A stretch of DNA of 64,000 nt from a virus. Positions 3,532 through 61,527 of the stretch are shown here, in pieces. The position numbers were made by a program, and so were the translations under genes. The stretch lies in IMG/VR virus record IMGVR_UViG_3300045988_147821, positions 1 through 64,000 of that record; one strand, given 5' to 3'. Under the pieces are notes generated by a model. That model saw nothing but the letters and a program-made list of their open reading frames with translations, had not been told where the DNA came from and ran no database searches. Each line of letters starts with the position of its first letter. Position 1 is the first letter of the stretch.

Positions 3532-3539
3532 CAAATATA
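3532..3539 (-). promoter_or_regulatory. Bacteroides-type -7 box TATATTTG
   Basis: Exact TAnnTTTG on the minus strand, 28 nt upstream of ATG 3504 and just downstream of the fibre-gene hairpin. Confidence 0.55.
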
Positions 3540-3656: not shown

Positions 3657-6600
3657 CTAAAACTTTATGATGAACTCTGTCATCAGATCGGCACCTGAAT
3701 CCCTGTTTACGGCACTTTGTTTCAGATACATGTTGTTTACAACGGATAGTGTATGGTTAATGACAACGGCATGCTTTTCGGGTACGCTGAACTGTTCTAC
3801 AATTCTTTTCCTTTCATCATCGTCTACGATTTTACTTGAATCCACATCCCCATTGGGGTTGCTTACGGAAACAAAGGAAGCAGGCCTTCGTGACGTGAAT
3901 CCCATGCAGGCAACAGGTTTCCCTATGATCTTGTTCCTCATTGCATCCGTCCATCCTATCAGATTGAGGTTTTTCACTACCTTATATGATCCACCTGAAA
4001 CCTTTTGTACGGCTATTATTCCGTCAAGGGTACAGTAATTGGATGATGAGTGCATGATAATTTCTCCACCTTCCGGATTATTTGCCAATCCAATCTTTTG
4101 TGAATTGTTAAGGTTTATCATGTAGATCAGGATTTTCGAGAAATCGCTGTTTGCCTGAACCCTCCATACGGATTTGAAATTCCCGTAACCCGATAGAAGG
4201 GTGTTCCATGGTGACTGTGACGACAGATCGGTCACATCCATGCTTCCTATCTGCCATCCCGAGTAATTGTTGATATACACATCCTTCTTGAATTCGGTAA
4301 GGGTAAGGAACAGGTAGAAGTTCGGTTTGTTGCCTGTGAAGTTGTGTGCAAATATATAATTGTTGTACACGTTTCCGCTTGCCAGTGTTCCCGTATTATA
4401 ATACTCTATGTAATCGTTGCAATCCGATGTGATGTATTGATTCAGGGTTGTCATGGTATTATCCGGTTGGAACGGATGACACAACTGCAATCCTAACAGG
4501 GCATTCGCTCCGCTTCCCGTAATTCCCGATACGGGTTTTGTGTATGCGAAATAAACACCGTAGATATTGTTGAAAAAATACTGATGGATGTACATCCCGG
4601 ATACAGTCTGTGTCTTTAGTATATTGTAGAATATGACCGACTGGAACATATCCCTGTTTCTGATTACGCTTTCCAGAAACGAATAATCCTTTCCATTATA
4701 CATGATGGCTTCCGCTATGAAAAGGGATGTATTGGTGAAATAATTGCATGGTGACATATAAAATTTGTATGATGATGTCAGAGCCTTTCCAAACCTGTAC
4801 ACATTACTTGAAGCGACGATGGGGCTATTGCTATCAGTGTCGGCATACATCATATTTTGGAAAACACCATAGGTAACATAAAATCTACCAAACATATCCT
4901 TGTCACGTTCCGCTATGAAATAATATTCGTAGGCAAGCGTATAATTGCCACGACTTGTAGCGGTTGTGGTAAAAAAGTTTTGGTACATTACTCCTGCATG
5001 GTATGCAGGCCATGCAGTATGGTCGGTGTCACCTTGCATGGTAATAGTGTCATTATGTGTTACAAAATAAAAATAGGACGGATTGATATGGTAATATGTA
5101 AAAAATCCAAAAGTGCTGGTAAAGGAATATGATGTATTGTCACTATAAGAAACGGCTGTATATATGAAGGTGGTCAGATTCCATGAACACATCATGTTCA
5201 CACTATTCCCTGCCACTATCACCTGCGGACGAGTTATTACGGAACCTATCGGATTATAATAAAGGGTGAATATGTTTGGATCAAAAGCAAGCTGTGCAGA
5301 CAATCCACATAGAACGTAAGACCATCTGGAAGAACTTCCCGAACCGAATTTTGATATCATCAGATAGGCGAAAATAAGGCATGGAGTAGGATTGTAGGCG
5401 GCTGATGCCTGTGTTCCGAAGGGAGCAGGCCCGATCGCACATATATTTCGCCTGTATATGTCCTGGACGGGGTAAACGGATGTACTCTCACTCAAAGATG
5501 AAAGACCAGTATTCCAGATGCTGCTGGTTTTAAACCCCCTCTCCTCCACCCAGGGTGTTCCGTCACCGATGCGGTCTACGGAGAGGGTGACAGCGTATGT
5601 ACCGCCGGAGGGGATGCTTGTAGGTAAGGTGAAGCTGCCTGTCGAATCGAACCATCCCATGGTCGCATAATTGTAATTGAATTTCCATGTTACGGTCGAT
5701 CCTTGCTTCAATCGTTTCGCATTGTAGATGGCCGAACCCGAAGCGTCTGTTGTAAGATTTATGGTTCCTATTGACGCACCGTTCTCGTCCGTACCCGTTA
5801 TCTGAACGGCAACGCCCGCAGGGGCTGTCGCGTTCTGTGCCGTGTCACGGAATGTCATTTTCACAAACATACCCTGTCTGGCAAGCGTTATTTCCTGATA
5901 ACGTGATGTCCACAATCCGACAGCACCCTTGGAAGCGGACAGATAACCCGACTTGGAAACAGACCATGACACGTTTCCGGGCAGCATCTTGCCCCAGCAC
6001 TCACCGTTGTCCGCCAATGAACCTGTGGTCTGTGTCTGGTATCCCATGGAGTATGTGACAACTCCTGTCGCACCCGAAAGGATACCGCTGTTGAAACCGT
6101 CAATGCATTTCAAATGGTTGTACGGGTATGTTCCACCGTTAGCATTTATCGATCCGGGATTGATGTTCCATGTATAAGCTGCCGTGTCGGATGTGGTAGG
6201 ATTGTAACCCCATACGCCCGTATTGTTGTTTTCGGTGAACGGTGATACGGAACCCTTTCTTATGTATGTCCCTACCGTGTTGTTTGTCAGGTCAAGATCC
6301 ATCCATCCCGTGTTCTGTCCGCTGCCGGAAGGGGAATTGGTAAGGACGAACACATATCTTCCTCCCAGTGTCCACCATCCCGGAATAGAGCACTGTCCGA
6401 AATTACCCATATTGACAATGCTGTTCGCTTCCGAAGCGTTCAGGGCGAATCCCTGCGTCTTGTAACATACGGTATGGACGATTGCGATATAGCCGCCTGT
6501 CGTAAGGTTCGCCTTTATCCAGTTCACCCATGTGGCCGTGTCACGTGTTTCATGATAGGTGACTGAACCGTCCGACACCTTCACCCTTAACGTACAGATA

Positions 6601-9600
6601 AGTCGGTTTCCCGATGTGATTCCACCCGGAGTATGGCTAAATTTCTGTGTTCCGTTCCACCATACGGTACTTATTGCCGAACCGTTGTTCCATCCGTTCT
6701 GTATGGTGAACCGTATTTCCTGATAATTTTGGGAAGTGATTCCTCCCGCAGTGAAAGCTGTTGACCACGGTTTTATGCGGCTTATGTAATGTAATCCCTG
6801 ATAATAGGTGGCTGTGAACTGTGCTGAACCGTTTGTATTACTGTTGAACAATATCTTATGGTTTTCACAACACATCATTTCTACGGCCGTGTTCGTAATG
6901 TTCTTCCCTCCTACCTGTACGGTAACTGTCTTGTTAAACGATACGCGCTTCATGTTGATTGTGAGTGCTGTCGCATTTTCTCCAAGAGTTCCGCTTGCAG
7001 CCGTGAAATTGGTGGCTGATGTATTTACCGTATAAGGAGATGTCTTGTAGACATTCAGCACAACCTGTCCGCTCGCGTTTGTCGTTCCCGAATAGGTAAC
7101 GGTGTTTTTTCTTGTTGAGGTAAGTTTTACCGTCGCACCGTTTATACTCTGAACCCAATCCGTCCATGTACCGTCCTTGACGGTTATTGTCACGTTGTAT
7201 TTGACGGGTTCCATTGCGACACCAAGATTTCCCGATGTTTGGGATATGGCTGTTACCTTATTGTTGTAATCGGCACGTGATGCGGTTGCCGAAACCTGTC
7301 TTGCTCCTACATATACATCCACATAATTGTTACCGCTACTGTTATATGTCTGTGTGGCGGTTGCGCCTGTTGCCGATACCGCAACGCCTGTAACATTCTG
7401 ACCGAATATGCTGTTGGTGAACGTAAGACGCACTTTCTTGCTTATCGTAAACTTCAATGTGGTGGAAGAACCTGTATTTGCAGGTGTCCATGACTGTGTA
7501 CCGTTGGAATAGTTACCCGAATAGGGTATCTGTATGGAGAACAGAACCCCTACATATCCCTGTATGGCTAATACACCATTTTCGTTTGACGTATATTGCT
7601 TGGTTGCACCACTTTGTGTGACATTGAACGAACCTAGACTTCCAAGTAACTGCCCGTTTGTCTGATCACCGAATCCCGGAACAATCTCACGAACCGTAAC
7701 GTTGAATGTCGCCTGCTGGTATGCAACCGAAAGGGTAATTGACATGGAAGTAGTTCTACTTGGCATATTACCCGAAGCGGAAGTAAATATATTGTTTCCT
7801 CCTGCCTTGACTGCATAATTACCACCCGAAAGAGGAACGTTAGGTACGGTCCATACTCCCGAAGCGTCTGTTGTTCCTGAAAATGATACGGTAACACCAT
7901 TCAATGTCTGTGACATGCTTGTAGGACAGGAAGCCGCCTTTCCGCCCGTTGTGGAGTTGTTTACGGTTATGGTGGCCGTACCTGTCTTTCTTGTAAGAAG
8001 AACCTTGTAATTCTCTCCTATCGCATGATAGGTGTGTGCAGGGATGCTTCCTGTCCATATTCCTGCCGAATCGGGAAGTTCAAATGTGACAGGAACCTCC
8101 AGTGATGCGGTGAAGAACACCTTTCCCTGTTCGTTGGTCACGCCGGAAAAAAGCTGTTTCCCTGCTTGTGTGACAATAACGGCAAGTCCTGAATGTATCT
8201 TACCGTTTGCCTGATCACCGAATCCCGGGATTTTTGTCCATATTTCCAGTGACACCTGCCCTGTGTTATATACAACCTGTATGTTGAGGTCATTGGATGT
8301 CGCTCCGCCACCAATAGGAATTGTTGCCGTACCCGATATACTGTCATACGTAACATCCTCACCTGCCGTCCAGTTGTAAGGCCCGGAAGGAACATTCTGT
8401 ATGGTGACAGTGCCGTCCGTTCCTGTACGTACATCGAACTTGATGGACGAATTAAGCTGGTGCGTGAGAATGATACGACAATCGTCTGCCTTGTCACCCG
8501 TATTCTTTTCCGTTACAACAATCTTCTGCGTGTACACCTTGGATATAAGGGTATATGAATAGGATTCACCTACTGCACCGAATGTATGGGAGAAAGTAGC
8601 ATTGGTGGCGATAAGGTTATTGTTGTTCTTGTACGTGAAGCTGACGGGCAATCCGATAACGACACTGATGGTGGCATTTCCGCTTGTATCGGTTGTAAAT
8701 GTCTTTGCTTCACCACCTCCCTGCTGGAACGAGAACAAACCTCCGTTAAGGTTGACAACAAGTCCTTCCCTGTACTGCCATTTCATATTGACAGTCACAT
8801 CGCCCGTATTGTATGTTACCGAGTTTGTCCATGTCGCAAGAGGTGATTCCACACCGTTCACTGGAAATGATACCTCACCTGTTTTCTGCTCATATACGGC
8901 ATTCCCGCCAAGTGTATAGGTATAATCTCCGTAATATACATTAGGAATGGTTACAGTACCATTGCTGCCCGTTGTTGCCGTATATTTGATGCTGGGATTC
9001 CATTTGGAAACAATAGTTATGGGACAGTTTGCCGCAATACCTCCTGTAATTGATTCCGTAAGTTTCACAGGAATGTTATATTGCTTGGCCGTGAAATCCA
9101 ATTTTATCCTTTCCACATCTTCTTCTCCTATATGATCATACGGGTTGAACACGTTGGGAGTATTGGTAAAGTATTTCAGTTCACCCGTCAGACGCATTTC
9201 ATTGGGAGAAAGCCAGATATTTTTGGGAAGCGTTGCCGTTGCTGCCGATTGTTTGAGTGCAGTGTTGGATGTGTCAAGTTCCACTGTCAGATTCTGTACC
9301 GTACTGATGGTCTGTGACGGGTATATCACGTTGTTGTATGTTATGGCATGCGATACAAGTGGTGTTGTCACCATTTGCAAATTTCCTCCTGTCAATTCAC
9401 TAGGAAGGACTACATGCGCTATTTCGGCATAGAATATGTTGTAGTTCTCCTTGAACTGGAACTTGTATCTTATCCCTGCGAACGTGTCGAATGAAATCAA
9501 GCCCTGTGCATTCACTTTTTGATCGGATAGGAGCAATTGGTTGTTCGCATAAATATCAAACGGTATGTTTGCAGGAAGCGGGGATTCTACCTGTGGAGCA

Positions 9601-12600
9601 ATACCATCCTGTACAGTATATCTTCGTGTCAATGTCCATCCCTTGTTTTCGGTAACTTTTCTTAATGCGATATCTGTGATAAATTCAGTCGGTTTCTGAT
9701 GTCCGACAGGGAAATAGATACGTTCGGTATTAGGCTTCCAGTCAGAATCGTTACCGTCCGAACCCCATTCATAAACATAATATCCGGGTGCCAGGGGATA
9801 CATTTCGGGTTTACCGTCCGATTCAAACTGTCCGTCCGTATCTGTAACACCTGTGAACACATATTCAGGAGCAAGCTGTCTGTGAATGTCTACAATCAAT
9901 CCTACTGCCTTGGTTGATACAGGGAAATCTGCGTCAATATCCATCTTCCATATCAATTCGGGATAGTCAAGATAGATTGTCTTGGCGGCAGTAGGAGGTG
10001 TTGTAAATGTAAGTTCGTTATTCTGTGTTATATGGTCTACCTGTGTTGTGACTGTATCAAATGTTCCGGGAGAAACATAGAATGTGGATGCCCCTAGTGC
10101 ATCCACCCGTATTCTTTGAGGACGTGATTGTCCTGTAACGGCAATTTCGGGATATTCCTCCGGGCCGTTCTCTACTTCGATAGGAAGGTTTGAGTTTTTC
10201 TGTAACACATTGAAAGTCAATGTTTTAATACAGGTTACGGTCCATCTGAAAAAGTCTGTTGCAACATCCATTTTCCATGAATGCTTGGTTGAATCATGAT
10301 TATAGAATCCTTTGTCAACAAACTCTATCGTGTATTCGACAAGAGGAAGAATGTCAACTGTCACCTGTCCGTTTGCACTGATTGCATAGGTCTTGGTAAC
10401 AGTTTCAAACCTGTTGGTTGACACCCATTGCAGACCTGTTACCTTGATACTTATACCATTAGTAATAGGATTAGCCGTTGCAGTTTCCTCATCAGAATCA
10501 AGAGATGATGATGTTTTCGGGATAATTTCATCTATTTCAAAGATAGAGGTCTTTGTACGTCTGTCCATAAGAACATTCATTGTCATGTCTTTCAGACGTT
10601 CAAGAGTGAAGTCAAGCTGCGGGGTATCAATATAATCGGGGTGACTTGCAATCAGATAGTATTCTCCCGAATGTGCCGAGAACTGGCATACACCGTTTGA
10701 CAGGGAGAACAATTCCTGAATCATTTCACCCGTACCCTTGTTATACACCTTCACACTTGCACCCTCTATCGGATTGTTTGAAAGGTAGTCAAGTACGGTA
10801 ATCGTATTGATACTGTCACGTACCTCCATATAGACGATTTCCTTATCGTCCTGGTCCTGTACGGTGATGGTACCTAACTTGTCCTTGTAATTCGCCCTTC
10901 TTGCAATATAATCGTATGAACCGTTAGGAAGTGTTGCGACAATCTGCCCGTTCACATCAGAAATGTATATCTTTCCACGGATAGTTACCTGTACACCCTG
11001 CAAGTAATCTCCTGTATCAATATCACGGAATACAAGATAATAGTTGTAATATGCAACACTAAGTTGTACAAGAACCGATTTGCTTGCTCCATCCACAACA
11101 ACAGTACCGTTGTATTTCAGATAGCCGGATTTGAACACGACAAAATCCCATGTTCCCGATACAAGGGAAACGATTGTCTGACCCGATTCATCCGTCAGAT
11201 AGGTTTGATTGTTGACTTGCAATGAAGCGTTGGGAATGACCTTGTTCGTTTCAATATCAATGACAGTGAATGTTATCTGATAGGGTGCGCTTTCCATTTC
11301 AAGGAGCACACAATTGTCTATGCGTGCATCGACATCAAATTCTCTGTGGAAAGATAAGTAACCGTCACGGACCGCATCAAGTTCATAACTTCCTATCCGT
11401 AACGGCATGGAAGCCTGTCCTTCAAGGTCTGTCTTGGTGGTCATGTTACGGACAGAAATGACTGCATCGGGAACAAATATCTGATTCATTCTGTCTATTG
11501 CGGCAAAATTTACCTTCATCGTTTCCACAAACATTTCCTCTTCAATCAGAATATCCTGATTAAGCACGCTCAATCCGTTTGTAATGGTCTGATAGTTAAC
11601 TTTTTCTATCGTATAGGCATAACTACCAGGTTCCAATGACACGACAGCCGTACCATCCGGCCCTGTGGTGTGTTCCTCACCGTTGATTGTAATGAGTGCG
11701 TTCTCAACAGGATTAAGACCTGTAATCACCTTGAACGTTACATTGTAGGGGATAGCGTAGAAATCATTGATTGTGATATATACGGGCTGATTTAGAATAA
11801 CGAACTGTCCTGTACGTGTCACCCAATTCTTCTTGGTAAGCGTATAATTGTATTCTCCGTTTTCAAGAAGAATGTTTGCCGTACCCTTACTGTCAGTTGT
11901 GATAACAGAGTTTCCGATAGAGATTGTTGCATCAGGAACAGGATTGTTTCTTGTGTTTACAACCTTAAATGATGCAAGATAGGTAATGCCTGTTCCTATC
12001 TGTGACACAATCTTATCCCCCTCACTTGCAGGATAGAAATAGGACGAAAGTGTTTGGTTTGAATCATACAGGATATTACCCTGTAAATCCCTCATTCTGA
12101 ATCCCTGTATTCTTGGAAGCTGATTGATTGGAACCTCCATATCATATCTTGGATTGAAGTATTCGTCGGGAACATATTTCACACCTTCCGCATTTTTCAC
12201 AACAGAGAGCAAATCATCCCACTGAACCGTCTTTCCTGCATCCCAAAAACGGAAGTCAAGATATTTGGTCAATGCCACTTGAATATTTCGTCTTACTTCG
12301 GCTGTCTGATATTCCGAACTAAGTTCCACACGGAAGTCTATACCTGTTTCACCTCCTACAATCATCCATTTGGCATTGCGTAGACGTATTCCGATTACAT
12401 CTCCGTTCAGGTCAATTTCGGAAATGGAGAATTTTGACTTCACTTTTTCAAGAAGCACACCCAATTCATCTTCCGTAAACAATACACCGTTTTGTGTAAC
12501 AAGGTAGATATAGGTATTACCGTCCTCTCCAAGGCCGACATTCATCACCTTCAAAACCCTATCATCAGCTTCCTGGAATATCTGTGTCCAATATTCCATC

Positions 12601-13190
12601 GTGCCTTGGGAATATCTGTTACCGTTATTTCTGATACGTTTACGGAATGTTTCATCATCCTCATAATCTCGTCCGCCAATAGCATAATATTCGTTCGTGC
12701 ATTCAATGTGTCCTAAAGGGCGTGGAGAAATCTGGACAATGCTGTTTGCTTCCACATTGGATGCAAGTCCTGTAATGGTACTTCGTACATGAACATATCC
12801 GTAACCCGATTCATTTACGGTAAGTGCTTCATCCGTTTCAAAACGTACACCCGATTTACTGATAAAAGTAGAACCAACAGCATACTTTGTTCCCGGTTCG
12901 GCATATACACGTACATACGTGGACGAACCAAGAGCATTCTTTCTTGGGCTTACACCAAACAAAGCTGCCGACTTGTCAAGATAATCACCTGTGGCATATT
13001 CGGGGAATAACTGTGCTTCCACAATGGCAATATCCTTGATTGCCTTCTGTGCCACCTTACCTACACCAAATGCAATGGCGTTGACCACTGAACCGTCAGC
13101 AACATTGCTTATCTTCGATGTCTGATCAATCAATACCTCTAAAAAGAGGTTTTTAAGAGTAGAAATACCGTTGTTTACTTTTGTAATCAT
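3657..13190 (-). CDS. giant baseplate-J-like / tail-fibre fusion protein (3177 aa)
   Basis: Single uninterrupted 9.5-kb ATG ORF. It has a Baseplate_J-like N-terminus, tandem CarboxypepD_reg-like beta-sandwich repeats, three ~180-aa super-repeats and a Tyr/Phe/Asn-rich C-terminal ~750 aa. Last gene of the baseplate block. Confidence 0.85.
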   Translation of the reverse strand: MITKVNNGISTLKNLFLEVLIDQTSKISNVADGSVVNAIAFGVGKVAQKAIKDIAIVEAQLFPEYATGDYLDKSAALFGVSPRKNALGSSTYVRVYAEPGTKYAVGSTFISKSGVRFETDEALTVNESGYGYVHVRSTITGLASNVEANSIVQISPRPLGHIECTNEYYAIGGRDYEDDETFRKRIRNNGNRYSQGTMEYWTQIFQEADDRVLKVMNVGLGEDGNTYIYLVTQNGVLFTEDELGVLLEKVKSKFSISEIDLNGDVIGIRLRNAKWMIVGGETGIDFRVELSSEYQTAEVRRNIQVALTKYLDFRFWDAGKTVQWDDLLSVVKNAEGVKYVPDEYFNPRYDMEVPINQLPRIQGFRMRDLQGNILYDSNQTLSSYFYPASEGDKIVSQIGTGITYLASFKVVNTRNNPVPDATISIGNSVITTDSKGTANILLENGEYNYTLTKKNWVTRTGQFVILNQPVYITINDFYAIPYNVTFKVITGLNPVENALITINGEEHTTGPDGTAVVSLEPGSYAYTIEKVNYQTITNGLSVLNQDILIEEEMFVETMKVNFAAIDRMNQIFVPDAVISVRNMTTKTDLEGQASMPLRIGSYELDAVRDGYLSFHREFDVDARIDNCVLLEMESAPYQITFTVIDIETNKVIPNASLQVNNQTYLTDESGQTIVSLVSGTWDFVVFKSGYLKYNGTVVVDGASKSVLVQLSVAYYNYYLVFRDIDTGDYLQGVQVTIRGKIYISDVNGQIVATLPNGSYDYIARRANYKDKLGTITVQDQDDKEIVYMEVRDSINTITVLDYLSNNPIEGASVKVYNKGTGEMIQELFSLSNGVCQFSAHSGEYYLIASHPDYIDTPQLDFTLERLKDMTMNVLMDRRTKTSIFEIDEIIPKTSSSLDSDEETATANPITNGISIKVTGLQWVSTNRFETVTKTYAISANGQVTVDILPLVEYTIEFVDKGFYNHDSTKHSWKMDVATDFFRWTVTCIKTLTFNVLQKNSNLPIEVENGPEEYPEIAVTGQSRPQRIRVDALGASTFYVSPGTFDTVTTQVDHITQNNELTFTTPPTAAKTIYLDYPELIWKMDIDADFPVSTKAVGLIVDIHRQLAPEYVFTGVTDTDGQFESDGKPEMYPLAPGYYVYEWGSDGNDSDWKPNTERIYFPVGHQKPTEFITDIALRKVTENKGWTLTRRYTVQDGIAPQVESPLPANIPFDIYANNQLLLSDQKVNAQGLISFDTFAGIRYKFQFKENYNIFYAEIAHVVLPSELTGGNLQMVTTPLVSHAITYNNVIYPSQTISTVQNLTVELDTSNTALKQSAATATLPKNIWLSPNEMRLTGELKYFTNTPNVFNPYDHIGEEDVERIKLDFTAKQYNIPVKLTESITGGIAANCPITIVSKWNPSIKYTATTGSNGTVTIPNVYYGDYTYTLGGNAVYEQKTGEVSFPVNGVESPLATWTNSVTYNTGDVTVNMKWQYREGLVVNLNGGLFSFQQGGGEAKTFTTDTSGNATISVVIGLPVSFTYKNNNNLIATNATFSHTFGAVGESYSYTLISKVYTQKIVVTEKNTGDKADDCRIILTHQLNSSIKFDVRTGTDGTVTIQNVPSGPYNWTAGEDVTYDSISGTATIPIGGGATSNDLNIQVVYNTGQVSLEIWTKIPGFGDQANGKIHSGLAVIVTQAGKQLFSGVTNEQGKVFFTASLEVPVTFELPDSAGIWTGSIPAHTYHAIGENYKVLLTRKTGTATITVNNSTTGGKAASCPTSMSQTLNGVTVSFSGTTDASGVWTVPNVPLSGGNYAVKAGGNNIFTSASGNMPSRTTSMSITLSVAYQQATFNVTVREIVPGFGDQTNGQLLGSLGSFNVTQSGATKQYTSNENGVLAIQGYVGVLFSIQIPYSGNYSNGTQSWTPANTGSSTTLKFTISKKVRLTFTNSIFGQNVTGVAVSATGATATQTYNSSGNNYVDVYVGARQVSATASRADYNNKVTAISQTSGNLGVAMEPVKYNVTITVKDGTWTDWVQSINGATVKLTSTRKNTVTYSGTTNASGQVVLNVYKTSPYTVNTSATNFTAASGTLGENATALTINMKRVSFNKTVTVQVGGKNITNTAVEMMCCENHKILFNSNTNGSAQFTATYYQGLHYISRIKPWSTAFTAGGITSQNYQEIRFTIQNGWNNGSAISTVWWNGTQKFSHTPGGITSGNRLICTLRVKVSDGSVTYHETRDTATWVNWIKANLTTGGYIAIVHTVCYKTQGFALNASEANSIVNMGNFGQCSIPGWWTLGGRYVFVLTNSPSGSGQNTGWMDLDLTNNTVGTYIRKGSVSPFTENNNTGVWGYNPTTSDTAAYTWNINPGSINANGGTYPYNHLKCIDGFNSGILSGATGVVTYSMGYQTQTTGSLADNGECWGKMLPGNVSWSVSKSGYLSASKGAVGLWTSRYQEITLARQGMFVKMTFRDTAQNATAPAGVAVQITGTDENGASIGTINLTTDASGSAIYNAKRLKQGSTVTWKFNYNYATMGWFDSTGSFTLPTSIPSGGTYAVTLSVDRIGDGTPWVEERGFKTSSIWNTGLSSLSESTSVYPVQDIYRRNICAIGPAPFGTQASAAYNPTPCLIFAYLMISKFGSGSSSRWSYVLCGLSAQLAFDPNIFTLYYNPIGSVITRPQVIVAGNSVNMMCSWNLTTFIYTAVSYSDNTSYSFTSTFGFFTYYHINPSYFYFVTHNDTITMQGDTDHTAWPAYHAGVMYQNFFTTTATSRGNYTLAYEYYFIAERDKDMFGRFYVTYGVFQNMMYADTDSNSPIVASSNVYRFGKALTSSYKFYMSPCNYFTNTSLFIAEAIMYNGKDYSFLESVIRNRDMFQSVIFYNILKTQTVSGMYIHQYFFNNIYGVYFAYTKPVSGITGSGANALLGLQLCHPFQPDNTMTTLNQYITSDCNDYIEYYNTGTLASGNVYNNYIFAHNFTGNKPNFYLFLTLTEFKKDVYINNYSGWQIGSMDVTDLSSQSPWNTLLSGYGNFKSVWRVQANSDFSKILIYMINLNNSQKIGLANNPEGGEIIMHSSSNYCTLDGIIAVQKVSGGSYKVVKNLNLIGWTDAMRNKIIGKPVACMGFTSRRPASFVSVSNPNGDVDSSKIVDDDERKRIVEQFSVPEKHAVVINHTLSVVNNMYLKQSAVNRDSGADLMTEFIIKF
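7440..9075 (-). repeat. three ~180-aa super-repeats inside the giant protein
   Basis: Each unit has a module with a conserved Cys (ANCPITIV / DDCRIILT / ASCPTSMS ...G(S/T)(N/D)G(T/V)(V/W)T(I/V)(P/Q)NV) plus a second module (PGFGDQANG / PGFGDQTNG). Unit starts lie near 9071, 8530 and 7985. Confidence 0.5.
10596..11978 (-). repeat. six tandem ~75-aa CarboxypepD_reg-like repeats (protein level, aa 405-865)
   Basis: Recurrent P-V-P-D-A-x-I-S-I...T-D-x-x-G-x-A...L-x-x-G-x-Y-x-Y units, e.g. NPVPDATISIGNSVITTDSKGTANILLENGEYNYTL, NPVENALITINGEEHTTGPDGTAVVSLEPGSYAYTI, VIPNASLQVNNQTYLTDESGQTIVSLVSGTWDF. Confidence 0.6.
12066..13190 (-). other. Baseplate_J (P2 gpJ / T4 gp6)-like domain, aa 1-375 of the giant protein
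   Basis: Pattern ..DYLDKSAALFGVSPRKNA..GSTFIS..G..FETDE..NVEANSI..N..AIGGRDYEDDETFRKRIR.. matches the family signature as I remember it. Confidence 0.6.
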
Positions 13191-38847: not shown

Positions 38848-40890
38848 TTAAACATCAAATTCCTTAGTTCCAACCTTGATATGAATTTTGGATTTTCGTC
38901 TTACCTTTCTTTTCTCTTCTTTCATAGGAGAAGTGACGAACATCCTTAATTTTTCATCCCATTCATCAAACATCGGGTTGTAGTATTGGAGCGAGCAACG
39001 GCAATTACCTGATACACATACCTTATTGTTTCTACGAATAATTAACGTATGATTTCTTTCCAATTCAACATCATATATATATCCCTCATATTCTATGACA
39101 TTTTCCTGTATTCTTCTTTTAAGATTGTACTTATTTTTTAATACATTTATCCATAAAATATCATTCTTAGATATATATACCTTTCCCCTTTTTACATCAT
39201 TATAATACCGTTTACCTGTATTTTTAAAAGAAGGTCTTTCTCCGGTTTTTAAAATCAATTCACCCAAATCATCAGCCAATCTTTTACTAGTTGTTATATA
39301 ATGAACTTGTGGCTTAAATTGATACCCTTTCCACACTTTTCCTTTATGAATAGTACCATCTCCAAGTCTAAATGCTTCTAAAAATAAAGAAATGTTTTCC
39401 GAAGTTGTTTGCTTTATAAAATCAGGAACATATCTTACATCTTGCTTTCCTAAATTATAGAAAAACAAAAGTAATTCAGGTTTACTGCAAGCAGAAATAG
39501 TGATTCTATCTTTATCATTTCTAGCCTTTTCCCCAAACAAAGAAGAAGAACATAACCACATCTTTTCCTTAACCTCTTGCTTTAATTGAATCAATTGGAT
39601 TAATTTTCTATCTTCAACCAATGTTCCATCTGAAAGCCAATAGCCCAAAAATTCACAAAACAACTTAAAATCATACTTTATTCCATCAAACTCAATATAC
39701 TCTAAATCAGTTCCTTTCCATTTAGGTATAGTAACTAAAAAGGTAAAATCTTTAGGAAGATCGCTTTCCTTTACTAACAATATATTTCTACCCCTTCCTT
39801 TATTATACTTATTTGTACCAACATGTACATGATTAGGGGTTGTACAAAGGTTATAATCTCTACTAACTCTTTCTATCATAATACCTTTATATTGTTGGTT
39901 TATATACTTAATTGCTTGCACATATTCACCTTCACCAGAACTAGGATTAACTGACAAAAATAATTCATCACCCTTTAAGTCTTTAAAAAACATAAACCCT
40001 TTGTCAGTAAGAACCTCTGTTTTATCATCATAACAGAAAGGGTGCGTAGCCTGGACAGTAGGAAGCCATTCTCTCTGCCTTCTCCCTACGTTGGTCCCAT
40101 TGGCAAGCAATTCTTTCAGTTTGAAAATTTTGGGCCTTGAACCAAGTCCATTTGTAGTAAAGAAACGTATGCAATATGAGCATGCACCATTGAACACTGT
40201 CTTATATACAAGGGCATCCTCACCATGCAAGTCAAGAATACTAAGTGCAGTTCCTTCCTCAAAGATATTCTGCATCTCTGTTTCCATGATACGAAGCCAG
40301 TCCTTTTCCCATATCTGCGTTCTATGACCTATGTCACTTACAATCTGTTTTATAGTCTGTTTTTTATTGAATACAGCACCATTCATAACAGCTTCCTGAA
40401 TCACCCTGCGTTCAGCTTCTGCCTGTGCATTGTCATATTGGGATGCAACCTCTCCAAGAATAGCTTCTGCCACATCCTTTTTCATCTTATCTCCAAGACC
40501 TTTGAGATAGGTATATGTTTTTGTAGCCGCCACACCAAGCCGCATTTGATCTGTAAGCGTCAATTGGGAAACCTGTTCGGATGATACGAATTTATAAAAG
40601 TCAGCATATCCTAATGATGCAGTCTGTCTTGGTTCAAGAACTCCGGCAAGTCTACCGAAAATCATGGCCTGCTGATATGGTGGGATTCGCTTCATCTCCT
40701 TTTCAAAATCAAAGTTGAACTCTTTAAGGAGTTTCTTGTCTGATTCCGAAATAAACTGTTTCCCCAACACTTTTACGATAAGACGAACAAGACGATAGTC
40801 TATTATTCTGAATATCCTCTTGATTACTCCGTCCTGTTCATAAAAAGGTGGATAAAACCTCAAATCCTTATCTATCCTGTTTTCTGCCAT
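38848..40890 (-). CDS. MuF / SPP1 gp7-type head morphogenesis protein interrupted by an intein (680 aa precursor; 336-aa spliced product)
   Basis: Joining the exteins restores ..GACSYCIRFF...WLPTVQATHPF|CRCSLQYYNP, the MuF H-P-x-C-R-C signature. Position directly after the portal. Confidence 0.8.
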   Translation of the reverse strand: MAENRIDKDLRFYPPFYEQDGVIKRIFRIIDYRLVRLIVKVLGKQFISESDKKLLKEFNFDFEKEMKRIPPYQQAMIFGRLAGVLEPRQTASLGYADFYKFVSSEQVSQLTLTDQMRLGVAATKTYTYLKGLGDKMKKDVAEAILGEVASQYDNAQAEAERRVIQEAVMNGAVFNKKQTIKQIVSDIGHRTQIWEKDWLRIMETEMQNIFEEGTALSILDLHGEDALVYKTVFNGACSYCIRFFTTNGLGSRPKIFKLKELLANGTNVGRRQREWLPTVQATHPFCYDDKTEVLTDKGFMFFKDLKGDELFLSVNPSSGEGEYVQAIKYINQQYKGIMIERVSRDYNLCTTPNHVHVGTNKYNKGRGRNILLVKESDLPKDFTFLVTIPKWKGTDLEYIEFDGIKYDFKLFCEFLGYWLSDGTLVEDRKLIQLIQLKQEVKEKMWLCSSSLFGEKARNDKDRITISACSKPELLLFFYNLGKQDVRYVPDFIKQTTSENISLFLEAFRLGDGTIHKGKVWKGYQFKPQVHYITTSKRLADDLGELILKTGERPSFKNTGKRYYNDVKRGKVYISKNDILWINVLKNKYNLKRRIQENVIEYEGYIYDVELERNHTLIIRRNNKVCVSGNCRCSLQYYNPMFDEWDEKLRMFVTSPMKEEKRKVRRKSKIHIKVGTKEFDV
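39004..40035 (-). mobile_element. LAGLIDADG-type intein (344 aa)
   Basis: Cys1 (TGT, 40033-40035) in CYDDKTEVLTDKGF. Block B is TTPNH. Two LAGLIDADG motifs (FLGYWLSDGT, LFLEAFRLGDGT). Block F is IYDVELERNHTLI. Terminal ..VSGN (Asn 39004-39006) followed by +1 Cys (39001-39003). Confidence 0.85.
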
Positions 40891-48295: not shown

Positions 48296-48321
48296 TTATA
48301 CTCAATTAATGTTTGAAAATT

Positions 48322-48381
48322 CATTATTTCGGTTATTTTCATTTACTACTTCGGTTATTTCATTCATTATTTCGGTTATTT
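48322..48381 (-). repeat. three direct copies of the (CATTA)TTTCGGTTATTT motif
   Basis: CATTATTTCGGTTATTT at 48322-48338 and 48365-48381 (17/17 identical), with TTCGGTTATTT at 48350-48360 between them. 27-86 nt upstream of ATG 48295. Confidence 0.8.
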
Positions 48382-48570
48382 TATCGTTTTTAGAGCTTAC
48401 AAGCACCTTAAACCCAATTTATGTAATGAAAAAAATGAAAATAATGTAAAAATTTTTCGTTTCGCCCGTATCAAAAACAACTTTATATCTATTCCCTTTT
48501 ATAACAATTGATTGTTGAAATCTATGATATTCCAATATCATTCAAAAACTAATTGTTACATTCCAAGAAC

Positions 48571-51518: not shown

Positions 51519-51688
51519 AACGTTTTCTGGCCACATTGTTCATATTGGCGGTATCGTTCATACTGATGTCTATCCTGTTCATGCCGGAAGAAATTCCTGA
51601 TGTTGATAAAAACATAAAAGAGAATTTTGACTATTCAAATGATAATTGTAACTTTGCCACCAAAACTTTAAACAATATTTTAAAATGA
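51515..51688 (+). CDS. small signal-peptide/TM protein (57 aa)
   Basis: ATGA overlaps on both sides (51515 and 51685). MKRFLATLFILAVSFILMSILFM hydrophobic N-terminus. Below the track cutoff. Confidence 0.45.
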   Translation: MKRFLATLFILAVSFILMSILFMPEEIPDVDKNIKENFDYSNDNCNFATKTLNNILK

Positions 51689-52023
51689 ACAAGATAAAAC
51701 AGCTATTGAGATGCCGGGGATTGAAGGCGAAGGATATGGCGGAAGCGTTGCAGCTTTCCGAAACAAGGATGAGCCAGATATCGAACGGTGCTTCCACAAC
51801 GGAAGAAACGAAAAGACGGATATGTGAATGGATAGGGGAACCGTTATGGATAGTGTTCCCGGAAGATTACCCCGACATGGCGGGGATGGTGGAGAAGGGA
51901 AATTGTGACAAGGTATCCATCACAAGTACGGGCAACAACCCCTATTTCTTTACGGCTACGGCCAAGATAGACGGGAAGCCCGTATATCTGGAAGGTGTCG
52001 CCCATAAAGTTGAGAAGGCATGA
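51685..52023 (+). CDS. XRE-family helix-turn-helix transcriptional regulator (112 aa)
   Basis: LRCRGLKAKDMAEALQLSETRMSQISNGAS is a Cro/CI-type HTH pattern. Confidence 0.7.
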   Translation: MNKIKQLLRCRGLKAKDMAEALQLSETRMSQISNGASTTEETKRRICEWIGEPLWIVFPEDYPDMAGMVEKGNCDKVSITSTGNNPYFFTATAKIDGKPVYLEGVAHKVEKA

Positions 52024-54307: not shown

Positions 54308-54931
54308 GGACATCCATCCCATATATGCAACACCCGTGGGGTATATCGCCCGTTTCATTTCCCGGAAAAATTTTGGAATAGGAATGGTAAGCCAAAAGGT
54401 TTCGGCAGGAAGGAAGAGAGGACATCACCCATGGGGGTAAAATGCGGTTTTTGTTTTTCCGAAAAATTTTAAGGTCCAAAAAGGTATTTCGGGGAATATA
54501 GGGAGAGAGGGTGTTTGTTGCTAAGCACGACACCCCGACTTCCTCGTTTCATAGTGTTTTGCTTCTCCAGGCATTACACCCGCATATACCCTATTTTAAG
54601 CCCTTACACACAAGGATCACCCGTTTTCCATACTGTTACCCATCCATTGCCACATTGTTCCCGTAACATCATTAAAACGGCTCGTACCCTATGTGTGTCG
54701 CCCTATCGGGAATGCGGTTTTTGCGTGTCCTGTGGTAGGGTGTGCCTTTCCCGATTATCATATAGTAAATTATTATAACAGGGTCAAAAACAGGGGTGTT
54801 TTCATTAAGTTACTGATATTCAGACGATTAAGCCAAAAAATCGTTGCATCCGCCCTTATATGCAAATCGAAGCATTGATAGTAATAATATAGGACAAATC
54901 ATTGTTTTGTGATGCGTGTGTACACGCGTGT

Positions 54932-54960
54932 GTGCTGCATATACGAATGTATTGCAGCAC
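54932..54960. other. stem-loop GTGCTGCAtATAC gaat GTATTGCAGCAC
   Basis: 12 bp with one bulge. Adjacent to the GCGTGTGT direct repeat and the GTGTACAC palindrome (54914-54933). Confidence 0.5.
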
Positions 54961-54983
54961 GAAAGAATGTATATGTATATTAG

Positions 54984-55004
54984 GTACAATGTACAATGTA
55001 CAAA
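54984..55004. repeat. 7-bp tandem repeat GTACAAT x3
   Basis: GTACAAT GTACAAT GTACAAA read directly. Confidence 0.8.
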
Positions 55005-55185
55005 AATCGAATATCAGTAACCAACTAGATTATATACACAATTAGGCGGTTTTACGCGTATATGCAGACCATACCAGGAACGGCAATAACATGGAATAAT
55101 TGCCTGGTGATCGTGGAAAGGTGGGAATAGGATAAAAGGGGTAATTAGATGTTTTGGTTACTCCCAATGGCTTCCACGCTAGGCA

Positions 55186-55266
55186 AAAACCTATCAAAAC
55201 CTATCAAAACCTATCAATTCCTATTTCAAAACCATTCAAAAAACAGCCCTCAAATCATTCAAAACC
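55186..55266. repeat. 10-bp phased iteron-like array (CTATCAAAAC) plus CATTCAAAA repeats
   Basis: CTATCAAAAC at 55191 and 55201 (exact), CTATCAATTC at 55211, CTATTTCAAAAC at 55221, then CATTCAAAAAAC (55233) and CATTCAAAACC (55256). Followed by an AT-rich tract at 55268-55300. Confidence 0.75.
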
Positions 55267-55572
55267 GTATATCTACTACTATTACTATTATTATAATCCC
55301 TATTAATGTTGTTGGAACGTTATTCTATCATTTCCGGTTTACCTGGTGATTTATTCTACTGATTGAATGTAATACAGTATATTATATTGTGTTTTCGCTA
55401 TTATGCGGGTGAATTCCCTTGTGTTCCGTATTAGGGTGGTATATATGGGTGTATATAGATGTAGTTTCCCTGTGATAGTGATATACATGCGTCTTTTGTA
55501 TGGTATGGTGGTATTATTGTATGAATGTCTTTTTATTCCTATTTTTATTTTTGGTAAGATTTTTTGCTAAAA

Positions 55573-56804: not shown

Positions 56805-56960
56805 GTATTTTTTAATTGTTCGTTAATCGTTTTTTTCAATCACATTGCAAAGGTAAGGATAAAAACCGAAATAACAACTATTTCGGGAAATTATTTTTGT
56901 TAATAAATGTTTAATGATAGGTAAAACGTTGAAATTGAGTGAGTTATGAACTATCAAAAA
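56805..56960 (-). repeat. terminator+promoter cassette, copy A
   Basis: Near-identical to copies B and C. Contains the hairpin CCGAAATA acaac TATTTCGG (56866-56886, TTTTT on minus) and the TACCTTTG -7 box (56848-56855). Its last 14 nt (TGAACTATCAAAAA) are shared with copy C only. Confidence 0.85.
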
Positions 56961-58834: not shown

Positions 58835-58975
58835 GTATTTTTAATTGTTCGTTAATCGTTTTTTCAATCACATTGCAAAGGTAAGGATAAAAACCGAAAT
58901 AACAACTATTTCGGGAAATTATTTTTGTTAATAAATGTTTAATGATAGGTAAAACGTTGAAATTGAGTGAGTTAT
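58835..58975 (-). repeat. terminator+promoter cassette, copy B
   Basis: Hairpin 58894-58914, TACCTTTG box 58876-58883. Also shares the 5' UTR and first codons (..AATTATGGAAACAAAG) with copy C from 58816. Confidence 0.85.
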
Positions 58976-60014: not shown

Positions 60015-60169
60015 GTGTTTTTTAATTGTTCGTTAATCGTTTTTTCAATCACATTGCAAAGGTAAGGATAAAAACCGAAATAACAACTATTTCGGGAAAT
60101 TATTTTTGTTAATAAATGTTTAATGATAGGTAAAACGTTGAAATTGAGTGAGTTATGAACTATCAAAAA
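60015..60169 (-). repeat. terminator+promoter cassette, copy C
   Basis: Hairpin 60075-60095, TACCTTTG box 60057-60064. Retains TTATGAACTATCAAAAA, which in copy A is the 3' end of gene 56944..57255, although no gene precedes copy C. Confidence 0.85.
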
Positions 60170-60245: not shown

Positions 60246-60281
60246 TCCTAGTCCTGGTCCTAGTCCTGGTCCTGGTCCTAG
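60246..60281. repeat. hexamer microsatellite (TCCTRG)x6
   Basis: TCCTAG TCCTGG TCCTAG TCCTGG TCCTGG TCCTAG read directly. Intergenic. Confidence 0.9.
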
Positions 60282-60387
60282 ACGATTGATAGTAAAAAAG
60301 TCGGACACATGAGGTGCCCGACTGGTGCACCCCCCCAGGGGCAGGAGAGGGTGTTGCACAAATTTTCGATAGGAGAGGGGAGATCTG

Positions 60388-60885
60388 CTATTCCTGGCCT
60401 CCCGTTTGGTTCAACCCCGCCTCCGCCATAATGATTTCCTTGACTTCGGTTTTCTTGATTGCCTTACAGGTGCACTCCTTCCCTACCCCGATAATCTCCT
60501 TGGCAGATTCAATCGCCTTTTCAGAGGCAAGAGATGAATCGGAAGCGAAGCACAGGACCTTGTGTGTCCGCGATTTCATTTTGCCCTTCACCTCTTCCAT
60601 ATATTCACAGGTGCACAGATACCATGCCCCATCAGCTTCTCCCCCACCCTTCTCGGACTTGGGAAGATACGTGTTTATTTTCATCTCACGTATCGGGAAT
60701 ACCCAGAACTCGCCTGTATCGCTTGACACTTCTTCTTCTTTTTCTATCACGGAAGTATGTTTCATCGCAAGCGTTTCAGCTTCCGTATAGTTTGCAGGGT
60801 CCATTACAAGGACGGTCTTTGATGTCTTTACCGATTCACCATCCACATTGTTCACGTAATAGTTGATTTTACATTCTAAATTCAT
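60388..60885 (-). CDS. DUF4494-like protein (165 aa)
   Basis: NLECKINYY...KTVLVMDPANYTEAETLA...GEFWVFPIRE...AWYLCTCEYMEE..GK.K.....VLCFASD resembles the F-E-C-K-V-x-Y...Y-L-V-D-A-x-S-F-T-E-A-E...G-E-F...W-F-K-x-K pattern of Bacteroidota DUF4494 proteins (from memory). The track start 60894 is a TTG; the first ATG is at 60885. Confidence 0.5.
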   Translation of the reverse strand: MNLECKINYYVNNVDGESVKTSKTVLVMDPANYTEAETLAMKHTSVIEKEEEVSSDTGEFWVFPIREMKINTYLPKSEKGGGEADGAWYLCTCEYMEEVKGKMKSRTHKVLCFASDSSLASEKAIESAKEIIGVGKECTCKAIKKTEVKEIIMAEAGLNQTGGQE

Positions 60886-61142
60886 TTTCCTCAAATTTTT
60901 ATGGTTAATAATTTATTTCACTTCCTCAAATACTTTATCAGTATATTTTGTTTCACTTCCTCATTCATCATTCACATCATCATCTTTTCCCCAACTTCCT
61001 CATCAACTTCCTCAAAAATATTTTTGTCACTTCCTCAAACACTTCCTCAACCGTTTCCTCATTACTTCCTCAATAGGAACGGAAACACTTCCTTAATGTC
61101 ACGGGAGATAAACATCAAGGTCATTTATGCCCGTTTTCCTCA
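60886..61142 (-). repeat. phased array of TGAGGAAG(TG) repeats (7 exact + 4 degenerate copies)
   Basis: Plus-strand CTTCCTCA starts at 60921, 60956, 60995, 61007, 61030, 61042 and 61065. One-mismatch copies start at 60886, 61054, 61088 and 61135. All share one orientation, with spacings of 11-12 bp or multiples. Confidence 0.9.
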
Positions 61143-61527
61143 TCACCCTAGTAAGACCCTGCCACGATATAAAAAGTGCCGTATCAAACAGGAAATTGGG
61201 CATTTTCATCCACAAAGATTTCGTGGTTATTTCCTCAATGTCCACCCTCATTCCATAAAACAGACCGATAGGACGTATCAGAACGCTTTCCTTGCTTGTA
61301 AAAACCTCACTTATCTTTCCTAGTGCCACGGAAGATATGTTCTTTCCCGGTATCAGGACAATAATGTCCTCACGTGGCATTTCAAGCATTTCCTCTATCT
61401 TTTCCGTTTCATCCTCAAAGAAGATATTGTTGTCACGACAAAGTTCAAGAGTGTACAGGACACTGTTGTTCTTCATGTGATCTATGAAAGCGTTACCCTT
61501 TTTATAGGAAAAATTCTTGTATATCAT
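61099..61527 (-). CDS. hypothetical protein (142 aa)
   Basis: ATG ORF whose 3' end overlaps the distal repeat copy. Confidence 0.55.
   Translation of the reverse strand: MIYKNFSYKKGNAFIDHMKNNSVLYTLELCRDNNIFFEDETEKIEEMLEMPREDIIVLIPGKNISSVALGKISEVFTSKESVLIRPIGLFYGMRVDIEEITTKSLWMKMPNFLFDTALFISWQGLTRVMRKTGINDLDVYLP

Follow-up and report, generated by a model that had tools for sequence, protein, structure and literature searches.

A constrained head-to-tail array of short direct repeats upstream of a DUF4494 gene in a gut phage lineage

We analyzed a 64,000-nucleotide (nt) stretch of phage DNA (positions 1 to 64,000 of IMG/VR record IMGVR_UViG_3300045988_147821; hereafter the window) and found that the gap directly upstream of a gene of the DUF4494 family holds ten copies of a short motif, all in one orientation, whose cores are under stronger constraint than the spacers between them. 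A functional protein-binding repeat array fits these observations. The explanation that we tentatively favor, while rating it at somewhat below an even chance, is a cooperative head-to-tail protein-binding array on double-stranded DNA in the DUF4494 leader, controlling that gene and/or nucleating a nucleoprotein complex. The original prediction, made from the letters of the window, had named iterons, a centromere-like site, or a cooperative regulator-binding array. Its underlying idea of a functional binding array fits, given conserved cores and diverging spacers; nothing in the data separates the three.

Results

Copies of the motif and their coordinates

On the minus strand, which is the coding strand of both flanking genes, the motif reads TGAGGAAG (CTTCCTCA on the plus strand). 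A pattern search reproduced every copy that had been reported: seven exact copies (starts 60921, 60956, 60995, 61007, 61030, 61042, and 61065) and four copies with one mismatch (starts 60886, 61054, 61088, and 61135), all of them in a single orientation. Numbered c0 to c10 from the upstream gene toward the DUF4494 gene, they are arranged as follows:

60886..61095, minus strand: the entire array, ten head-to-tail copies in the gap that read TGAGGAA(G/A), usually (T)TGAGGAAGTG
61135..61142, minus strand: c0, TGAGGAAA, in the 3′ end of the upstream gene (codons M-R-K)
61088..61095, minus strand: c1, TAAGGAAGtg, beginning 3 nt past the stop of the upstream gene
61030..61072, minus strand: dense block c2 to c5 (61065-72; 61054-61, which is TGAGGAAA; 61042-49; 61030-37), start-to-start 11, 12, and 12 bp
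60995..61014, minus strand: c6 (61007-61014) and c7 (60995-61002), 12 bp apart
60886..60963, minus strand: promoter-proximal c8 (60956-63), c9 (60921-28), and c10 (60886-93, TGAGGAAA), in 35-bp steps with A+T-rich spacers
61013..61026, no strand: 14-bp palindrome CAAAAATATTTTTG in the c5-c6 spacer, matching the Bacteroidota -7 box (TAnnTTTG) on both strands

Some details of the prediction change with these coordinates. The noncoding gap, given as 204 bp, spans 60886..61098 and is 213 bp long. Of the eleven or more copies proposed for it, ten are intergenic; the copy at 61135, c0, falls inside the upstream gene and is a doubtful member of the array. At the other end, c10 (60886-60893) abuts the ATG of the DUF4494 gene (60883-60885) and does not overlap the gene start as had been claimed. 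The spacers of the array are ~80% A+T.

Concentration of the motif in this gap far exceeds chance. The exact 8-mer occurs 13 times in the window, against 1.9 ± 1.4 expected from dinucleotide-preserving shuffles of the window (0 of 100 shuffles reach 13), and seven of the 13 are packed into 152 bp. The 10-mer TGAGGAAGTG occurs four times in the window, each time inside the array. The motif had been described as absent elsewhere in the window; there are in fact six further exact copies (22068, 28188, 33841, 40254, 41205, and 47759), all on the same strand and all within minus-strand open reading frames (ORFs), where GAG-GAA-G is ordinary Glu-rich coding sequence. An additional one-mismatch copy at 61230, also in coding DNA, may be coincidental. 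We found no intergenic copy outside the array in the 64-kb window, which rules out a regulon of such sites within it. The genome-wide count that had been suggested, run here on the window, thus shows a motif that is rare in coding DNA and several hundred times denser in the array than elsewhere.

Conservation among relatives

Seven genomes of 95-100% identity (L001-L005, L322, and L374) carry the array, and a more distant relative, L011 (~80%; flanking proteins 78-86% identical), retains seven to eight copies; the check for its presence in close relatives, proposed with the prediction, therefore came out in its favor. In aligned columns of the window and L011, 58 of 63 core positions are identical (92%) compared with 72 of 113 spacer positions (64%; P = 2.7e-5, Fisher's test). 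Constraint is therefore stronger on the cores than on the DNA between them.

The layout of the array is also retained in L011. Spacings there are 47, 23, 23, 12, 39, 35, and 34 bp, differing from those of the window by one 35-bp block: 35 bp in the c2-c5 part of the array are missing. Compared by hand and without gaps, the c8-c9 spacers of the two genomes show near-random identity, yet the length is still exactly 35 bp; the c9-c10 spacer, in contrast, is conserved in sequence. Two positions that deviate from the core in the window are regular in relatives: c1 is an exact TGAGGAAG in L004, L322, and L011, and the position of c0 in L011 also reads TGAGGAAG.

Among the seven near-identical genomes, the array differs by whole-unit changes only. 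In L003, the 35-bp unit of the c8-c10 region has been duplicated once more; L002 lacks 11 bp and has one converted unit; and in L001 and L322 a spacer is replaced by another of the same length. All of these variants keep the register. The 11-bp and 35-bp insertions and deletions (indels) between near-identical genomes show that the array is noncoding, whatever the genetic code. We conclude that purifying selection acts on the cores and probably on the spacings as well, which makes a purely neutral repeat unlikely.

The array appears to be specific to this lineage. Protein searches with both flanking genes recovered no relatives beyond the ~78-100% range, and a HMMER scan of 1.8 billion representatives returned remote DUF4494 members only. 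Two short JGI contigs that had looked like further relatives were assembly artefacts. In each related contig (up to 141 kb), one locus matches the paired 10-mer pattern. Four scans of viral, genome, and metagenome collections yielded no irregular array outside the lineage; the other matches were acidic coding repeats or perfect microsatellites, the latter being common with the same 8-mer in unrelated genomes, and no window protein co-occurs with those other arrays.

Spacing of the copies

Start-to-start spacings from c0 to c10 are 47, 23, 11, 12, 12, 23, 12, 39, 35, and 35 bp. The best lattice period is 11.9-12.0 bp (Rayleigh R = 0.83), and against fully random spacings this lattice is significant (P = 0.005). 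At 10.5 bp, R is only 0.09. On relaxed B-DNA, sites 12 bp apart are turned by 51 degrees relative to each other, and sites 35 bp apart by 120 degrees. Since there is no 10.5-bp signal and the rotations are this large, the sites do not lie on one face of relaxed B-DNA, and the claim of a single helix face has to be dropped.

Locus and phage

The neighboring features of the array are as follows:

61099..61527, minus strand: upstream gene, 142 amino acids (aa), no family, isoelectric point (pI) 5.2
60388..60885, minus strand: downstream gene, 165 aa, a divergent DUF4494 member (PF14902) by Pfam profile
60299..60323, minus strand: terminator-like hairpin and T-run, ending the transcription unit after the DUF4494 gene

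The 142-aa gene is confined to this phage lineage, as is the array. The 81-aa gene that precedes it has promoter-type boxes on its upstream side, the interval from the 142-aa gene to the array showed no terminator-like site, and a hairpin follows the DUF4494 gene; for these reasons, the most likely arrangement is a three-gene unit (81-aa/142-aa/DUF4494) in which the gap is transcribed as the leader of the final gene. Just past the DUF4494 terminator, some 600 bp from the array, a (GGACYA)n/12-bp repeat (window 60246-60281) shows the behavior of a neutral microsatellite: close relatives carry different copy numbers, and L011 has none. We also note CCATAAAAATTTGAGG just 5′ of the DUF4494 ATG, within the conserved spacer between c9 and c10. 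It is related to a shared leader, CACCA(T/C)AAAACTTTAAA, that follows several promoter-like TAnnTTTG boxes at 3532, 51627, 62759, and other sites.

The window has genes for a myovirus-type tail sheath and, ~17 kb from the array, for a portal and a major head protein. The genome of the lineage measures at least ~105 kb, and the array lies away from the ends of contigs that measure 62-141 kb. Sequence features indicate a Bacteroidota host, namely promoter-like TTG-N17-21-TAnnTTTG sequences before many genes, a BACON-domain protein, and the near absence of Shine-Dalgarno sequences. The relatives come from human-gut metagenomes, and GenBank phages gave no match by DNA or protein. Most proteins of this phage belong to no family, its genome is otherwise tightly packed, and GC skew follows gene orientation. 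Three further features of the window, all on the minus strand, may be recorded here. At 113-1459, four consecutive small genes have a strong Shine-Dalgarno sequence (AAGGAGGA) 6-9 nt before the ATG, unlike almost every other gene here and unusually for a phage of Bacteroidota. One ORF, at 3657-13190, encodes 3177 aa. Beside the portal gene, at 38848-40890, a 680-aa protein carries a LAGLIDADG-like domain (residues 500-569) and has no PHROG match; one possibility is a large terminase with an intein or homing endonuclease inserted in it.

A proposed protein-binding array in the DUF4494 leader

In the explanation that we tentatively favor, the array would be a cis-acting docking platform of ~10 head-to-tail sites with the core TGAGGAAG, often TTGAGGAAGTG. 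A single sequence-specific protein, from the phage lineage or possibly from the host, would bind cooperatively as a polar oligomer in an 11-12-bp register and coat the ~210-bp DUF4494 leader. Occupancy would mainly set DUF4494 expression, with the array serving as a roadblock/operator or as an activator platform. We place this effect first because the last site abuts the start codon and the gap has no conserved promoter or terminator. The bound array may also nucleate a higher-order nucleoprotein complex. Direct-repeat arrays at about one-turn spacing are what filament-forming DNA binders usually use, as in the P2 Cox and 186 Apl boxes, ParR-parC, TubR-tubC, the P4 alpha octamers, and the PhoB boxes. 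A rigid duplex scaffold is favored because the spacer lengths are conserved. We infer protein binding, DNA rather than RNA as its target, and the regulatory outcome; what we observe is the pattern of repeats and their constraint.

Several points weigh against this explanation. The position of every copy on the sense strand, with c10 at the start codon, suits an RNA target equally well. Significance of the long-range 12-bp phase is lost when the tandem 11-12-bp units are fixed and only the long spacers are randomized (P = 0.06), or when duplicated spacers are tied in the same test (P = 0.13). The spacing multiples of ~11.6 bp in the original prediction accordingly survive as a periodic register, at ~11.9 bp, and not as a long-range lattice: a 12-bp register is a fair description of the array that could reflect a protein filament or merely the size of the amplified unit. 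Indels of repeat-unit length are expected from slippage anyway and by themselves do not prove selection on the register, and the comparison among genomes spans just two divergence levels of one lineage. The neighborhood offers no obvious binder. Pfam, PHROGs, and NCBIfam gave no DNA- or RNA-binding family, and hence no DNA-binding domain, in the flanking and nearby proteins, three of which are acidic (pI 4.6-5.2); sequence searches found no solved relatives of them; and the structure model of the 142-aa protein is unusable, with a predicted local distance difference test (pLDDT) score of 37. No winged-helix protein was detected beside the array, and helix-turn-helix matches in the window are weak and confined to 51685-52023, 9 kb away.

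A possible operator in the transcript

The alternative that we rate next, a possibility to be taken seriously though one we would bet against, places recognition in RNA: an RNA-binding protein, for which the DUF4494 product is a candidate, would cooperatively occupy repeats of UGAGGAAG in an unstructured purine-rich leader, and spread of the protein to the AUG would repress translation. Autogenous control of this kind is familiar from T4 gp32 and RegA and from ribosomal proteins, and multiple CsrA sites in a leader from pgaA. Besides the sense-strand layout, the likely cotranscription of the gap, which has neither a terminator-like site nor a conserved Bacteroidota promoter, speaks for this reading. 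So does the leader being less structured than its shuffles (z = +1.6), as do the two-module ribosomal proteins that are the best, if weak, whole-length fold matches of the DUF4494 model (E ~0.03, template modeling [TM] score 0.27), and the core GAGGAAG, one base from the CsrB repeat CAGGAAG.

The spacing tells against an RNA target: lengths of 35, 39, and 23 bp are retained while the spacer sequence diverges, which is more natural on a rigid duplex than on single-stranded RNA. In addition, the GGA motifs are not displayed in hairpin loops, no Rfam family matches, the leaders of other DUF4494 genes lack repeats, and ten sites are many for a translational operator. Bacteroidota are not known to have CsrA, Hfq, or ProQ.

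A possible genome-maintenance site

We regard it as unlikely, if still worth weighing, that the array is a single-copy maintenance site, that is, a short-iteron origin, a parC- or tubC-like centromere, or a terminase (pac) array that would recruit an initiator, a centromere-binding protein, or the small terminase. The array occurs once per genome and consists of 10-12 direct repeats separated by A+T-rich DNA, and its 11-12-bp units recall the 12-bp repeats of TubR-tubC, the 11-bp iterons of ParR-parC, and the P4 alpha octamers. The lineage-specific 142-aa gene just upstream would further match the arrangement of sopB-sopC and parB-parS.

The gene content does not bear this out. The scan for replication and partition genes covered window proteins, with ~40-80 kb of the genome lying outside the window, and among the proteins scanned, flanking genes included, there is no Rep, helicase-primase, ParA, ParM, TubZ, ParB, or integrase, nor a recognizable ribbon-helix-helix or winged helix-turn-helix centromere-binding protein. 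The 142-aa protein, whose model gives no usable fold, may still be an initiator of a novel kind. DnaA boxes form no cluster; two one-mismatch boxes near the array are both coding, and their window-wide count is below expectation. The distance of ~17 kb to the portal and head genes, a core of 8-10 bp compared with the 17-22 bp of classical iterons, and a GC skew that merely tracks gene orientation all point the same way. Two other arrays in the window, at 48319-48382 and 55186-55241, look more origin-like.

The first of these consists of three 21-22-bp direct repeats (ATTCATTATTTCGGTTATTTTC) beside an A-rich tract, in a 386-bp gap between divergent genes at a strand switch, and is more classically iteron- or origin-like than the array studied here. 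The second belongs to ~600 bp of noncoding DNA (54900-55500) that contains GTACAAT three times, AAAACCTATC four to five times at a 10-bp period (55186-55241), CTAYTA repeats, and GGGTGGTATATAT/GGGTGTATATAGATG; this may be another regulatory or origin region.

Possible expansion without selection, and other readings

We consider it improbable that the array is an unselected minisatellite-like expansion, in which slippage or unequal recombination multiplied 12-bp and 35-bp units inside a gap that tolerates them, and nothing binds them specifically. Such a process would account for the copy-number polymorphism among near-identical genomes, for indel lengths that equal the repeat-unit lengths, for perfect tandem repeats with the same 8-mer in unrelated genomes, and for a variable hexamer repeat only 600 bp away. 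It does not account for exact cores and differing spacers within one genome, or for the much faster divergence of spacers between lineages. The irregular architecture survives ~20% divergence, at which the neighboring microsatellite is lost, and the genome is otherwise tightly packed.

The remaining readings were rejected. A coding repeat, including one with recoded TGA or TAG, conflicts with copies in different frames and with the 11-bp and 35-bp indels. Shine-Dalgarno sites are excluded: most genes of the phage lack them, the GAGG of c10 ends 2-3 nt from the ATG, and by inspection there is a central mismatch to the anti-Shine-Dalgarno sequence. A structured RNA or known RNA family is rejected since the gap RNA folds worse than 189 of 200 shuffles and has no Rfam match; its minimum free energy and centroid structures contain almost no stable hairpins. 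Lastly, a conserved internal Bacteroidota promoter is not supported. The sole TAnnTTTG match of the gap lies in the palindrome at 61013-61026, which is lost in L002, where the 11-bp deletion takes part of it and leaves the junction GTGTTTGAGG with no TAnnTTTG match, and is mutated in L011, which has CATTTTTG in its place.

The DUF4494 protein and phi29 p6

The DUF4494 gene matches PF14902 with 39.1 bits (cut-off 27; E = 8.4e-10) over profile positions 3-136 of 139, and its structure model is good (pLDDT 81.5). The protein is an internal tandem duplication of two ~65-residue beta-beta-alpha-beta modules (module-module hhalign probability 93%, E = 2.8e-7). Other DUF4494 proteins of phages share its fold (E down to 2.5e-9, TM 0.74-0.84). 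The model also matches small proteins of Bacillus phage VMY22 and Streptococcus phage SOCP, which we take to be phi29-like phages. Locally, one module gives a Foldseek match to phi29 p6 (8pw2) with a probability of 0.98, a TMt of 0.67, and a root-mean-square deviation of 2.3 Å over 60 columns, but with E = 0.21. Our searches found no similarity between DUF4494 and p6 at the sequence level.

Protein p6 binds as one monomer per 12 bp (11 bp in GA-1) and forms a right-handed superhelix with DNA (PMC10899789). The array period of 11.9 bp (R = 0.83; long-range phase P = 0.06-0.13) is close to this step, which would amount to 24 bp per p6 dimer. There are also clear differences: p6 recognizes bendability, whereas a specific 8-10-mer is conserved here; p6 acts at the ends of a protein-primed linear genome, whereas this array is internal to contigs; and the strand order is beta1-3-alpha-beta4 in p6 and beta-beta-alpha-beta in the model.

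It is conceivable, if a long shot, that a DUF4494 protein with p6-like modules has gained sequence specificity. Each head-to-tail module would then read one TGAGGAAG, 12 bp from the next, and the protein would polymerize on the array into a right-handed superhelix like that of p6, autoregulating its gene and organizing or activating the local DNA. We keep this as speculation because it is built on weak fold similarity and adjacency, and because no array was found upstream or downstream at 18 distant DUF4494 loci, which also rules out the array as a general companion of DUF4494 genes. If it were true, it would give a function to a protein family that is widespread in Bacteroidota phages, crAss-like phages included, and would mean that the p6 fold, which was called unique in 2024, also occurs outside phi29-like phages. 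A literature search found no paper on DUF4494.

In other gut phages (L019-L034), the DUF4494 gene lies directly 3′ of a conserved gene pair (~300 aa and ~260 aa). By eye, this pair resembles 7-deazaguanine/queuosine-type DNA-modification enzymes and places DUF4494 among early or DNA-metabolism genes.

Other repeats

A 138-bp intergenic cassette is present three times on the minus strand (56810-56947, 58838-58975, and 60019-60156; 91-100% identity). It contains a hairpin (CCGAAATAGTTGTTATTTCGG) with a T-run, overlapping a Bacteroidota-type promoter (TTG-N19-TACCTTTG), and a conserved leader that extends from the promoter to the ATG, each time of a different small gene. The cassette also breaks assemblies, as one IMG/VR contig stops within it.

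Outside the lineage, the sequence L258 has seven 23-bp direct repeats (CGGCCAACTGAGGAAGTGAAACA) at 4045-4200 that have the 13-mer TGAGGAAGTGAAA in common with the phage array, a match that is probably due to chance in a collection of 596 Gb. Immediately downstream of these repeats come a promoter-like TAtcTTTG box and an ORF of 423 aa that contains a GKT (Walker A-like) motif; by eye, an ORF beside the repeats is like a transposase fragment. In an unrelated phage group of IMG/VR (L067, L078, L090, and L098; in L098 around 1908-2100), copies of GTGAGGAAG in both orientations surround a short palindrome and form an intergenic cluster that precedes a gene start.

Comparison with known systems

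A selected cis-element with a simple 8-10-bp core offers an entry point, and a bait, to a regulatory, replication, or segregation module of an essentially unannotated lineage. Were the DUF4494 protein its binder, a family found in crAss-like and other Bacteroidota phages would gain a function; otherwise, the element is one more direct-repeat binding array. A literature search turned up nothing on comparable arrays in Bacteroides phages.

The boxes of P2 Cox and 186 Apl are six to seven direct repeats of ~9 bp, in one orientation and about one turn apart, at which a filament-forming winged-helix protein bends or wraps DNA and represses the adjacent promoter. Short direct repeats of one orientation are common to both cases. 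The phase of those boxes is ~10.5 bp, however, compared with 11.9 bp here, and they are found at the lysis-lysogeny switch and at attP beside an integrase, neither attP nor integrase being seen in the proteins scanned.

The sites of ParR-parC of R1 (11-bp iterons) and TubR-tubC of pBtoxis (12-bp) are head-to-tail blocks, split by a longer spacer and lying near small genes, that are coated by a helical protein filament. This array likewise has 11-12-bp head-to-tail repeat blocks beside small genes. It differs in that no ParM or TubZ NTPase and no partition operon was recognized in the proteins scanned, and in that its host element is the genome of a sheathed-tail phage, not a plasmid or a known phage-plasmid.

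CsrA/Rsm leaders and sponges, such as the pgaA leader and CsrB, contain many GGA repeats, with CAGGA(U/A/C)G as the CsrB repeat. Here too there are many sense-strand GGA repeats, the last of them by the translation start, with a similar core; unlike in that system, there is no hairpin-loop display, no Rfam match, and no CsrA-like protein detected among the flanking proteins.

In the type I iterons of P4 ori and crr, an 8-bp core (TGTTCACC) is repeated many times and read by a phage protein. The array has a core of the same length, also repeated many times, but P4 has two clusters, ori and crr, bound by the large alpha primase-helicase, whereas we find one cluster and no such protein in the proteins scanned. 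Classical replication iterons are direct repeats of 17-22 bp, usually about two helical turns apart; the core of 8-10 bp and the spacings of 11-12, 23, 35, and 39 bp set this array apart from them.

The array would work in the manner of Cox/Apl, ParR-parC, TubR-tubC, P4 alpha, or PhoB sites, but it has the defining features of none of these systems. We see it as a member of the familiar class of direct-repeat binding sites, not as a new kind of system, in a lineage that is itself unstudied.

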